From positions 118,112,001 to 118,172,000 of the forward strand of contig NW_024704742.1 in assembly GCF_018977255.1 (NCBI RefSeq): 60,000 bases of DNA. The letters run 5' to 3'. The position numbers and the translations under genes were made by a program. The DNA comes from Callorhinchus milii (lineage: Eukaryota). The notes beneath the pieces are model-generated. The model ran no database searches, was not told the origin of the DNA, and was given only the letters and a program-made list of their open reading frames with translations. Shown piece after piece: positions 6,688 through 14,677 of the stretch (position 1 is the stretch's first letter; each line of letters starts with the position of its first letter).

Positions 6688-6815
6688 TGGCTGAACTTCC
6701 ACATTTCGGACCGATGGATCAGGAATTGTCTGTGGCCAGTCTGGAAGTTCCAGGTATCCGTTTGCTCTTGTGTTAAGTGTGTGTGATAGCGTGCTAAGCT
6801 GGAAACGATCCCTAT
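6688..6815 (-). CDS. AP3B1: AP3B1 exon (approx. 17), 128 nt, (D)[42 protein letters not shown]
   Basis: cag| and |gtatgg; phase 1 to 0. Confidence 0.93.
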
Positions 6816-9669: not shown

Positions 9670-9995
9670 GGTCCTCACCCTCCTCACTCCTGAAGTACAG
9701 TTCCACCTAAGCTGGTTGCCCTCATGCACACAGCCCAAGTAGCTATTGATTGTGTGTGAGTCCTGACAGTGAGTGTGAGCAGACTACTTGACTGTAGACG
9801 GAGTCACAGCCAAATCTGACTTCTCATCTGGCTGTCACCAGTATAGGATGCTGCAGAGGAACCATAAGCAGGAAATCTGGCTAGTTTTCTCCTCTTTAAC
9901 CCTGGATAGGCTGTGCCACGTAAGACGCCCCAAAGTCTCAGATACAACCAGCTTGGACCAGGATTTGAGCCACTTACCTCCCAGTCTAGAGGTAA
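9670..9995 (-). mobile_element. ancient SINE-like repeat, interrupted by the L2 insertion
   Basis: Reverse complement aligns by eye with 9300-9450; the head appears to continue at about 13632-13662. Confidence 0.6.
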
Positions 9996-10000
9996 GTCAG

Positions 10001-13000
10001 GGCCGGTGATAGCTCGAGGCAGGGTTGTGGTGCTGGGGATCGGGACCGGTGTTAGCCAGAGACAGGGGCTGGCTGGTAGCTGTAGATTGGGCCGGGGTCT
10101 CGTGGACCCTAAGGTGGGGCAAGTGTCTGGAGGCCGAGGGTCTCGGGGATCGAGCGGTGGCCATTACCTGGTTAGGGGGAGCCGCCATTTTGGACTTTCA
10201 GGTTTTCCCGCCATTCTGTGTGACGTCACTTCCGCTCGCCAGGTTTGAATCCCTGGTAGCAGGTACAATACAGTATAGCTTACACCAGTGTCTCCCTCCC
10301 TCCTTCCCTCCCATCCTCTGACCATCTCCCTCCCCTGTGCTTCCCCTGCAGGCTGCTCATTGCTAACCACAATGAGTGCCCTCCCCCCTCTGCGTCACCT
10401 CTAGTCCCCACAGCCTCCTGCAGGCTGACAATGTCCCACTAATTCGCCGCCTCTCGTCCCAGCGTGTGCATCTTGGCTGCCACCCCCAACCCGAGCTGGC
10501 CCTCCCTCAAAATGCCCCCCTCCCTGCAACTCTCCCGCTCTGTCCTGCTCTCTCTCCGCCATTCCCGCCTCCTGACCCCCCCCCCACTGCCTCCCTCTGC
10601 TCCAGCCTGGGAATCCTCCACCGGGCTCATCGTGACACTCAGCGTTGGCTGTCAGCAGCAGCCATACCAACTGCCCCATTCCCCACTACCGCCACAAGCC
10701 ACCCCGGTCCCAGACCCCGGGGGCTAACCTCTCCTCCCTCATCTGCATCCCCACCCTCTCTGCCAACCAATCCACTACCCCTTCCCATTCCACACATCCC
10801 TCTGCCAACTGTCCACTCCGCATGGGCCTTCAAAACGTTCGCTCCATCTGCAATAAGGCCCTGGTCATCAATGAACTCATCCTCGATGAAAACGCTGACA
10901 TAATGGCCCTCACTGAAAGCTGGATCACCCCAGGCGACACCTTCCCCCTCACTGAGGCCACACCATCCGCCCATACCTACCACCATGCCCCATGCCCCAA
11001 CCGCTGTGACGGTGGTGCGACCCTCATCTCCAGGGCATCACTTGCCCTATCCCCCTACTCAGCTGGCTCATTCCCCTCCTTTGAACGCCCTCTGCCATCC
11101 CTCCCATCTCTCACTAAAAATTCTCCTAATTTACCTCCCCCCAAAACCCTCCCCAACTTAATCTCTGACATCTCCACCCTTCTAGCTTTCCTCTGCCTCT
11201 GCTCCAACCACCTCATCATCCTAGGCGACTTCAACCTCCACTTCACCCCCTCTTGTACCACCTCCTCAGACTTCTTCTCTGTACCTCTCCCTTCACATCC
11301 ACTCTGCTACCCACACCCACAGTCTCCGGCTCGACTTGGTGATCACCCAGGGCCTCAGTGTCTCGGATGTCAACATCACTGACAAGGCCATCTGTGACCA
11401 CCATTTCATCCAAACCTACCTCCATCTTCTACCGCCCATGGAAAAACATCTCCCCACAATCCCTCTCTGCTGCCCTGGAGCCCTCTGAACTCCTCCCTCT
11501 CTGGCCCACCACCTATCCTCTGTGTTTACTCTCCTCCACAGCACCCTCTCTACCACACTCAACGGCCTTGACCCCATCACCTACCGAACTGCCTCCTATT
11601 CCCGATCCTCACCCTGGTTCACCACTCGCTCAAGGGCCAGGTGCGGTCTGCCAAATGCACTTGGCTCAAATTCGGCCTAATGGTCCACCGGCACATCTGG
11701 CTGGACTACACCAAAACCTACCGCTCCGCTCTCGCCTCGGCGTCCAAATCATCCTTCTACTCCAGGTTAATCCTGGAGGCTAAGGGCAACCCCAGGTTCC
11801 TGTTCTCCACCACCAACTGGCTCCTCCGCCCTCCCCGCCTCGTAGATTCTTTCCTCCGACTCCCACTGCGAGGAATTGCTGGACTTCCTCGAGTCCAAAA
11901 TCGAGGGAATCTGCTCAGCTGCCACTGCCCTCCCAACTTCCATCCCACACTCCGACCGCTACCCATCCCTCGTTCCACACATTTGAACCTGTCACCCCCT
12001 CCTTTGTCATCACTACCATATCCTCCATGAAGCTCACCACCTGCTCCCTGGACCCCATCCCCACTCCTCTCCTTAAATCCCAGCTCCACCTCCTTGCCCC
12101 ACTACTCACTGACATCATCAACCTCTCCCTGTCATCTGGCACTGTTCCTACTCCCCTCAATACAGCCATTGTCACCCCCACCTTGAGGAAACCTTTCCTT
12201 GACCCATCACAGCTATCCAGCTACCGGCCGATCTCCCGCCTCCCTTTTCTGTCTAAGACCCTTGAGAGAGCCTTCACCTCTCAGCTTCGCTCTTTCCTCT
12301 CCTCCCATTTCCTCCATGAGCCCGGAAACTGCTCTGGTCAAGGTCACAAATGACATCCTGACCATATGTGACCAGGGCTCCCTCTGCCTCCTTGTCCTCA
12401 TCGACCTCTCCGCCGCCTTTGATACTGTGGACCACTCAATCCTCCTCCACCGCCTCTCCTCCCACCTCAACCTTCAAGGTTCTGTCCTTGACTGGTTCAG
12501 GTGCTGCTTTTCACACCGCCTCCACTTCGTCTCTGCAAACGGCTTCTCCTCTAACCCCCACACCGTCTTGTACGGCATTCCTCGGTTCCCTCATCTTCAC
12601 CCTCTACATGCTCCCCCTGGGTGACATCATCCGCAGACATGGAGTAAATTTCTACATGTATAAGGATGACAGCCAACTCTATCTCTGCCTCCACCCTCAA
12701 CTCCAGGACTACTGGCAACCTGACCGACTGCCTGTCCGACATCAAGTCCTGGACGAGGGCCAACTTTCTCTAACTCAACGTCAGCAAGACCGAGGCCCTC
12801 CTGATTGGCTCGCACCAGCGCCTCCGCATCTCGAGCGCTGGCAGCATCAGCCTTCACGGTTGCACACTCAACCTCACGAAGCCAGTCAGGAACCTGGGTG
12901 TCTTGTTTCACACTGAACTATCCTTTCTCCCCCAAATCCGCGCCATGACTGGCACTGCTTACCACCACCTCCGCAACATTGCCAGACTCCGCTACTGCCT

Positions 13001-13631
13001 CACCCCTCAGGCTGCCGAAACCCTCACCCATGCATTCGCCACATCAAGGCTCAATTATGAAAATCCCTCCTCATCGGCCTTCCCAACTCTTCCCTTCACA
13101 AGCTGCAGATCATCCAAACTTGGGCAGCTCGTATGCTCTCGCACACCAGGCTCTGTGACTCCATCACTCCCACCCTCACCCGACTCCACTGGCTCCCCAT
13201 CCCTCAGAGGATCGAATTCAAGATCCTCGGCCTCACTTTCAAGGCCATTCATGGCCTTGCCCCCTCCTACCTCTAAGACCTGCTGACTCCCTACCAACCT
13301 GCCCACTCCCTCCATTCAGCGGGCTCTGGCCTGCTCCATGTCTCCCGCCTGACCTTCGATGGCTGGGCTTTCAACCTCTCAGCCCCCACACTCTGGAACT
13401 CCATCCCACAGTCCCTTCACCTCGCTTCCTCCCTTGCCTCCTTCAAGGCCGGTCTCAAGACCCTCCTCTTCAACCGTGCCTTCAGTCGCTCTCCCACCTC
13501 TCTGCCTTCCCTCACCCCTACCCCACCCCTCCCCCATGCTAGGGTCCTGACCCCTGACTGTCCAGCGCCTTGGGATGTCCTCCTGACGTGAAAGGCGCTC
13601 TATAAATGTAATTTTGTTTTTGTTGTTATCT
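10001..13631 (+). mobile_element. L2-clade LINE, near-complete ORF2, pseudogenised by frameshifts and stops
   Basis: APE motifs LQNVRS, DIMALTESW, ILGDFNLH; RT motifs SYRPISRLPFLSK, LIDLSAAFDTVDH, YKDD (YADD position); 3' stem-loop and (TTG)n tail; possible 5-bp TSD GTCAG at 9996-10000 and 13632-13636. Confidence 0.93.
10161..10250 (-). promoter_or_regulatory. CpG-rich promoter-like motif cluster with ATG and 5' splice site
   Basis: YY1 GCCGCCATTTTG 10181-10192, E2F-like TTTTCCCGCC 10203-10212, CRE TGACGTCA 10221-10228 overlapping ETS ACTTCCG 10228-10234, CHR-like TTTGAAT 10244-10250; minus-strand CAG|GTAATG at 10168/10167. Confidence 0.6.
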
Positions 13632-14490
13632 GTCAGTTACAGATGTTCATTAGATCATTGGGCTTGTGCTGAATTTTTTAAAAATAACATTCCTCATGAA
13701 TGCAAGTGGAAAGTATACCCCACAGAGAAAAAGGAACCCAGCAAGACCAAAGTGACTGATAAGATCAAAAATAACATTTTAAAACATGCAAGTAAAGTAT
13801 AGCAAGGACAGAGTATAAATACATTAGCTGGCAATAACAAAAATCAGCATCAGGAAGAGGGCAATAGAGTGGAGTCCCATAATAATGCAATGTTTGGAAA
13901 CCATAAAATCCCCACCTAGGTTATAGAAAGGCACAATTGCAAGTTTGACTGCGCAGACGCAAAGGCAAACAACTCACTCCTGGAAAATTAGCCACCAACA
14001 TGACTTCCCATTTGCTGGGCCTTCCCAAAGCAGGAATGATGTTGGTAATCTGATGACTCAGAAGTCAGCTGATTTTTTTTAAAAAAACACGCAAGTTAAA
14101 ATGGCTAAATTCTGAGTTATTAGGCCGCCGCTGATTGAACCTGCTGTTTTGCTTGACACAAACAAAATAGGAAGCCTTATCAATGGCAACCTAATGATCC
14201 AGAAGTCAGACATTTTAATTCAAAAAGCCAGCCAGCGTTTTTGTTAAGCAAAAGCTTTTGCAAATGTACTCTTTCGTGAGATGGCATTTTCCACGTGTGC
14301 AAATTCACTGAATTTACACATTGGTTTTATGGCAATATGCTTTTGTAAAAGCCATTTTTGTATTCATGATTAGAAGCCATGGTGGTGAATGTTTTCCCTC
14401 GATGCTGGGTAACAATGGTCAAATATTCAGTCCCATCTCACATTCACATTTATTGATTTCAAATATAATAATGAGATTTTTACTCTGTAC

Positions 14491-14677
14491 CTTTAAATGG
14501 AGATTCGAGCACGGGTGCTGGCTTCTGAACGAGGAAAATTTTCTTGGCATACTTGCTTAAAGCTCCACTCTTCTCATTTGGAACTATCAGCTGCTTGATA
14601 AATCTTGTACGGTCTCTAATGTCATAGTTTTGATCATACTTGGCTACGTTTAATATGTACTGCGTAAGCAATTTTGT
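14491..14677 (-). CDS. AP3B1: AP3B1 exon (approx. 16), 187 nt, [26 protein letters not shown]...[10 protein letters not shown]
   Basis: cag| and |gtacag; YDIRDR motif at end of trunk. Confidence 0.97.

Follow-up and report, generated by a model that had tools for sequence, protein, structure and literature searches.

Internal promoters with YY1, exchange of 5' UTRs, splice sites and antisense activity are all already known for LINEs of the L1 type. Little has been described of L2 promoters, since the majority of L2 copies are old and truncated. Within the L2 clade, Tamura et al. in 2007 reportedly described splice sites in zebrafish ZfL2-1 and ZfL2-2 that can join host exons.

Promoter activity of the mouse L1 Tf monomer depends on a YY1 motif whose sense-strand sequence is GCCAT, and GCCGCCATTTTG is given as a long YY1 site of high affinity (PMC11602158); the antisense activity of the mouse L1 5' UTR is 5-22% of the sense activity (PMC9022269). 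In human L1, splicing within the 5' UTR removes promoter sites and makes dead ends, and the splice donor, which overlaps RUNX3, may be kept for promoter function (PMC5860796). The ETS-CRE composite is an element of proximal promoters (PMC3464117, PMC4555227), for which the excerpt of PMC3464117 gives no strand bias. No description of an L2 antisense promoter or 5' UTR intron was found in the literature as covered by titles and abstract openings, with repeat-database reports and most subscription journals outside this scope, and the excerpt of PMC5499810 does not cover the leader described here.

An L2 insertion in an AP3B-like intron

The window analysed here is a 60,000 nt stretch of the Callorhinchus milii genome (contig NW_024704742.1, positions 118,112,001 to 118,172,000 of the forward strand). 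An intron of a minus-strand gene in this window hosts a decayed plus-strand LINE at approximately 9990-13629. The exon at 6815-6688 matches AP-3 beta-1 (E 7e-15), a further AP3B-like exon is found at about 17153-16977, and the LINE copy is antisense to this AP3B-like host gene. An APE endonuclease is matched at the N-terminus of ORF2 (PF03372, E 3.4e-8, 10636-11379) and an RT-like motif is visible at 12600-12690, Pfam giving no RT match on the frameshifted pieces. The 3' end carries a stem-loop and a short microsatellite tail (13561-13629), and dispersed 5'-truncated copies are also seen. From the RT and 3'-end motifs we take the element to belong to the L2 clade. No ORF1 is present in the L2 family at the leader position (9990-10350). 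The features of the locus are as follows.

6815-6688, minus strand: 128-nt AP3B1-like exon of the host gene, downstream of the insertion, with a phase-1 acceptor.
9990-10001, plus strand: 5' edge of the L2 copy, a remnant of the family's sense-donor motif (cut 9991|9992).
9992-10351, plus strand: intron-like segment of the L2 5' UTR, GT...AG, 360 nt, retained in all copies seen.
9997-10188, minus strand: antisense frame of the initial annotation, 63 codons, ending in TGA (9999-9997).
10002-10180, plus strand: G-rich, length-variable region of degenerate tandem repeats (11 G-runs, CpG o/e 0.63).
10162-10170, minus strand: antisense donor CAG|GTAATG of the initial annotation, not kept between lineages.
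10181-10192, plus strand: long YY1 consensus GCCGCCATTTTG, retained in the older lineage.
10203-10214, plus strand: presumably E2F-like site TTTTCCCGC with a second CCGCCAT core.
10221-10235, plus strand: overlapping CRE/ETS composite site, retained in the older lineage.
10239-10256, plus strand: conserved short inverted repeat, 18 nt, nearly unchanged between lineages.
10291-10352, plus strand: polypyrimidine tract with its CAG|G acceptor (10351|10352); the first sense ATG (10372) follows 20 nt later.
10352-13629, plus strand: decayed single-ORF L2 body with APE endonuclease match, RT-like motif, 3' hairpin and short TTG-rich tail.
14491-14677, minus strand: AP3B-like exon of the host gene, upstream of the insertion, with an approximate 5' boundary.

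The initial annotation had read the promoter-like block on the minus strand, and every motif that it listed is present where it was placed: an exact ETS-CRE motif (10235-10221), ATGGCGGGAAAA (10214-10203), YY1/ATG (10192-10181, ATG at 10188) and CAG|GTAATG (10170-10162). On the L2 sense strand, the YY1 site reads GCCAT. In 5000 dinucleotide shuffles of 9990-10360, neither the exact ETS-CRE motif nor the long YY1 site appeared (0 for each); thus, the motif cluster is beyond chance. The strand composition also flips as described, with a G-skew of +0.42 at 9993-10180 and -0.74 at 10291-10351. The inverted repeat presumably resembles a tRNA T-arm or B-box; Rfam gave no match on it at E<=1 in the copies L043 or L123, and elsewhere just tRNA-like matches outside the block and one weak sub-threshold match. 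The folding of 9990-10360 is no more stable than that of shuffles (z +1.77).

At the 5' edge, 9990-10001 aligns over 12 nt to the family donor motif AGGTAAGTCAGG in L003. Beyond this motif, about 110 nt present in L003 are deleted from the window copy, which also lacks the family's upstream leader. Fuller copies reach upstream of this edge with a common leader, some with tandem units of about 28 nt, and the window copy is therefore 5'-truncated. The GTCAG at 9996-10000, earlier proposed as part of a target site duplication, is part of the family's own AGGTAAGTCAGG, a motif matched 37 times in the genome. A duplication was rejected, as the 5' GTCAG is family sequence and the 3' GTCAG (13632-13636) does not directly adjoin the tail.

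A 9-nt perfect inverted repeat (9972-9980 and 9989-9997) is found at the 5' junction of the insertion, and because of it a second strong minus-strand donor, AG|GTAAGT (9979-9972), lies on the AP3B1 strand just outside the L2 copy. It is possible that the repeat records a tiny fold-back or priming event.

Orientation and conservation of the leader

A genome search with 9990-10300 gave at least 43 matches, and 40 of 126 candidates were scored. The motif block was found in 59 distinct loci among 96 fetched (window copy included). The copies were chosen by likeness to the window copy or to L123, so that all counts are lower bounds and biased to similar copies. Near-identical clusters were counted as separate loci (L131-L135, L052 and L053 on C10, 19.57-19.66 Mb; L048 and L056 on C61 and C97), and are probably segmental duplications, not independent insertions. 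The leader is present in most copies and is a family trait; by the test that the initial annotation had set out, this favours its proposal of an L2 counterpart to the L1 antisense promoter over that of a 5' inversion.

The inversion, supposed to have arisen by twin priming and to be private to the window copy, fits the flip in strand skew and the 9-nt inverted repeat at the 5' junction. However, the block continues on the same strand into the L2 body (10352-10800) in 57 of the 59 loci that bear it, or 56/58 without the window copy, with the same skew in these other copies, and an inverted body is seen in 0/59. The two exceptions are L027, in which an internal deletion skips to a later part of the body, and L093, which is 3'-truncated and ends in the pyrimidine tract. 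There is also no ORF1 here to be inverted. The proposed inversion is thus refuted for the 9990-10350 segment, and has virtually no chance of being right.

An older lineage of the family was reached through L123, with the block in 26/30 loci. Majority bases were compared between 56 copies of the window's lineage and 25 copies of the older lineage. They agree over YY1, CRE/ETS and the 18-nt inverted repeat, and differ over the spacer from YY1 to CRE (10192-10218) and most of the G-rich region. At the site of the window's TTTTCCCGC, the older lineage has TTTCCCGCC, shifted and without the ATG. Within the window's lineage, variability is 0.06-0.09 in the motifs and 0.17 and 0.14 in two of three spacers; the third spacer (10212-10220) varies no more than the motifs (0.057), and the antisense donor varies like a spacer (0.13). 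As in a LINE internal promoter, the block lies inside the 5' UTR of full-length copies, and its factor sites are conserved between lineages.

On balance, this stretch is probably the native 5' UTR leader of the L2 family, with YY1 and CRE/ETS as a likely forward internal Pol II promoter, and with an intron-like stretch that is left in place in the copied RNA. Positive G-skew is typical of DNA downstream of CpG-promoter starts, and the G-skew on the sense strand is positive just inside the 5' end, supporting a forward reading. Judged by sequence, the motifs appear to suit a forward internal promoter no less than an antisense one, since the sense strand carries GCCAT at the YY1 site, as it does in mouse L1 Tf, and no strand bias is given for ETS-CRE in the excerpt of PMC3464117. 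ETS-CRE therefore does not fix the direction of firing, and the orientation of YY1 does not imply antisense firing. Against the forward promoter, the block is set back 250-600 nt from the 5' end, its order on the minus strand (ETS-CRE, then YY1/ATG) resembles a housekeeping first exon, and the sense donor GT is broken in 10/38 copies.

Under the native-leader explanation, YY1 and GABP/CREB-type factors would bind the block in unmethylated active elements, and full-length RNA would be driven from a start upstream of the sense donor. Splicing from donor to acceptor would remove the promoter, and therefore only intron-retaining RNA would found new active copies. The sense donor itself may act in U1 binding close to the promoter, or belong to a factor site.

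The antisense proposal holds that the leader contains a dedicated promoter of the L1 ASP/ORF0 kind, with a short coding first exon and chimeric AP3B1 transcripts. Its motifs are real and family-wide: among 53 copies scored for the antisense frame (six more were dropped, as their block did not match the pattern), the ATG is found in 47 and AG|GTAA in 22. Since L2 copy and host gene run in opposite directions, the downstream exons would lie in front of such a promoter, with the second strong minus-strand donor at 9979-9972, and an antisense activity 5-22% that of sense in the mouse L1 5' UTR gives it a parallel (PMC9022269). However, the ATG at 10188 is the reverse complement of the YY1 core, Kozak context included, and is thus forced by it; the antisense ATG and donor of this copy arise as side effects of the YY1 core and the sequence next to it. 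A further, out-of-frame ATG lies upstream on the minus strand, at 10214.

Neither frame nor donor is conserved. The antisense frames in the 53 copies range from 3 to 202 codons. The two motifs that carry antisense ATGs are 13 nt apart in most copies, 11-12 nt apart in a second subgroup and 14 nt apart in the older lineage (13 nt in 31/43 copies of the window's lineage, 14 nt in 17/18 older-lineage copies scored), and as the length of this spacer differs, the antisense frame is broken between lineages. In a tree of the downstream body alone, groups of 13 and 30 rows part with a support of 92/94, the bootstrap not having settled, and the short-spacer variant occurs in 8/13 rows of the first group and 0/30 of the second; this variant shifts the antisense frame and weakens the antisense donor. 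AG|GT is found at the antisense donor in 0/20 older-lineage copies. The window's antisense ORF does stay open to the insertion edge, as had been claimed, but its openness is not notable, since 1185 of 5000 shuffles are free of stops over the same 62 codons. A coding role was rejected on these variable frames, chance-level openness and lineage-dependent spacer, and on the lack of any Pfam match to the antisense ORF. The predicted splice of MAAPPNQ to the acceptor at 6815 was confirmed to be out of frame, open across the 128-nt exon and closed by a TGA in the next, so that such a fusion stops in the second host exon that it reaches.

What stands of the antisense proposal is the family-wide, promoter-like block; an ORF0-like conserved frame and donor do not (spacers of 13, 11-12 and 14 nt; AG|GT in 0/20), and a dedicated antisense promoter of this kind is very unlikely. 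The window copy retains 7/9 CpGs, a number that 15/59 copies match or exceed, and special preservation of its CpGs was accordingly rejected; nor are the motifs special to this copy. The copy in the AP3B1 intron is an ordinary decayed, 5'-truncated member of its family, and is probably silent. Some antisense leakage is expected of LINE CpG promoters in general, and weak antisense activity of the block, with leakage into AP3B1, would be plausible.

The intron-like frame of the block

The motif block is flanked on the sense strand by a donor and an acceptor that the initial annotation had overlooked. The donor (9991|9992) matches 8/9 U1-pairing positions, and the GT...polypyrimidine-AG consensus of introns is present and conserved. 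In 32 other copies, 281-805 nt lie between the two sites. Of the copies in which the acceptor was located, 46/48 have an intact AG (older lineage 21/23), the donor GT is intact in 28/38 (older lineage 13/13), and the tract and CAG|G are retained across lineages despite a changed tract sequence.

These ends could belong to a regulated spliceosomal intron from 9991|9992 to 10351|10352, with the spliced RNA having a short translation leader, or being a promoter-less dead end, and the unspliced RNA being copied into the genome. The 8/9 U1 matches, the conservation of tract and CAG|G across lineages, the free length (281-805 nt) between fixed ends and the G-runs after the donor all point this way. 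However, the sense strand downstream is pyrimidine-rich throughout, so that the tract is partly compositional, and an alternative 5' end on the same L2 body has a GTAAG motif without a tract. No spliced genomic copy is seen, whereas human L1 leaves spliced copies (PMC5860796): spliced copies number 0 in 30 leader loci (of 40 matches) and 0 in 30 body-start loci (of 40 matches), and three spliced-junction probes found 0, 2 and 1 near-matches, of which none is spliced, compared with 37 genomic matches for the unspliced donor probe. The near-matches L199 and L200 were rejected as the places of L072 and L080, both unspliced, and L201 is likewise an unspliced or truncated copy. The acceptor context (10345-10355) is duplicated 72 nt downstream (10417-10427), which puts another potential acceptor beyond the first sense ATG; the junction probes found no spliced copy using it.

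In sequencing runs that were guessed to be RNA, three contigs on the family copy L043 are unspliced, one over the donor and two over the acceptor. Contigs of four runs on L043:1400-2150 contain four joints, none of which is 1556-to-1897 or GT..AG, and cover of the upstream leader is near zero in three of the runs. Loose contig ends were dominated by an unrelated repeat in the flank, and with cover this thin the lack of a spliced joint carries no weight. Contigs of run X11 over the ORF start (L043:2007-2150) are far deeper than those of the other three, with level and strand unreadable from contigs.

A regulated intron is possible, if rather unlikely. LINE proteins copy the RNA that encoded them, and if splicing were shown beside zero spliced retrocopies, the family would be an exception to a LINE copying the RNA it was translated from. 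A further combination, unlikely and put forward tentatively, is that the promoter sits wholly inside a genuine conserved intron with retrovirus-like sorting of RNA, while the CpG block fires weakly backwards and seeds antisense starts in host introns such as that of AP3B1. If true, spliced RNA would be translated or discarded, and only intron-retaining RNA would be reverse-transcribed.

Exchange of 5' ends and comparison with known systems

A different 5' end is found in 4/30 body-start loci. A search with this alternative end gave 35 matches, and 25 loci were fetched: 5 join the window's L2 body and 18 run into the start of a Cys-rich ORF. In the tested loci, this ORF matches a GDSL esterase family, and an endonuclease match comes after it. 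We take this esterase-ORF and endonuclease layout to be that of CR1-type LINEs. In this genome, different LINE families thus have leaders in common. The alternative 5' end has TATA-like, GTAAG and CRE motifs in repeated units; on the L2 body it is seen in L097, L098, L109, L114 and L116 (also L076 and L089), and on the esterase-ORF1 LINE among L099-L121.

A separate observation concerns copies whose 5' end falls within about 40 nt just 3' of the block (the equivalent of 10245-10284), which make up 7/30 pattern-sampled copies (L169, L178, L183, L184, L185, L189, L198). By a hand estimate, starts here are about twice as frequent as further upstream. This could reflect a second, internal start site, or a short repeat at which truncation is favoured.

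Exchange of 5' ends raises the alternative that the leader was captured whole (first exon, first intron and acceptor) from a host housekeeping gene or another element, its signals being inherited baggage. The exchange seen in this genome (5/25 on the L2 body, 18/25 on the esterase-ORF1 LINE) and the three different sequences that precede the sense donor are in keeping with this. However, no host source locus was found with the one exact pattern searched: of its 17 ETS-CRE...ATGGCG matches (15 places), all but L130 align to the window's L2 family, and L130 shares only the motifs with it. The CpG-rich stretch with GC-box repeats at L130:1501-1700 looks like a host promoter. Capture would explain the origin of the leader, not its maintenance, since the retention of motifs across lineages argues for function. 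We regard capture as quite unlikely; it is compatible with the explanation of a native leader with a promoter.

The proposed L2 ORF0 and the proposed inversion are not supported, and the AP3B1 copy is ordinary. With primate L1 ASP/ORF0, the locus shares an antisense ATG, a frame of approximately 60-70 codons and a donor in a LINE 5' UTR (PMC4859970), but the L2 antisense frame and donor are not conserved between lineages. As in the human L1 SpIREs, donor and acceptor flank promoter elements (PMC5860796), but the L2 family has 0 spliced retrocopies compared with 37 unspliced matches. Whereas the ETS-CRE composite is otherwise one of proximal promoters, that of the window has been spread by a retrotransposon. 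Like mouse L1 Tf, the L2 family has a LINE 5' UTR with YY1 reading GCCAT on the sense strand, tandem 5' units and exchange of 5' UTRs (PMC11602158, PMC9022269). It differs in belonging to the L2 clade, in its single ORF and in having one YY1 and CRE/ETS block deep in the leader, rather than one site per monomer; its block is flanked by consensus donor and acceptor, and its promoter is a candidate. The L2 family thus provides a mapped candidate promoter with lineage-level footprints and an unusual intron-like frame.
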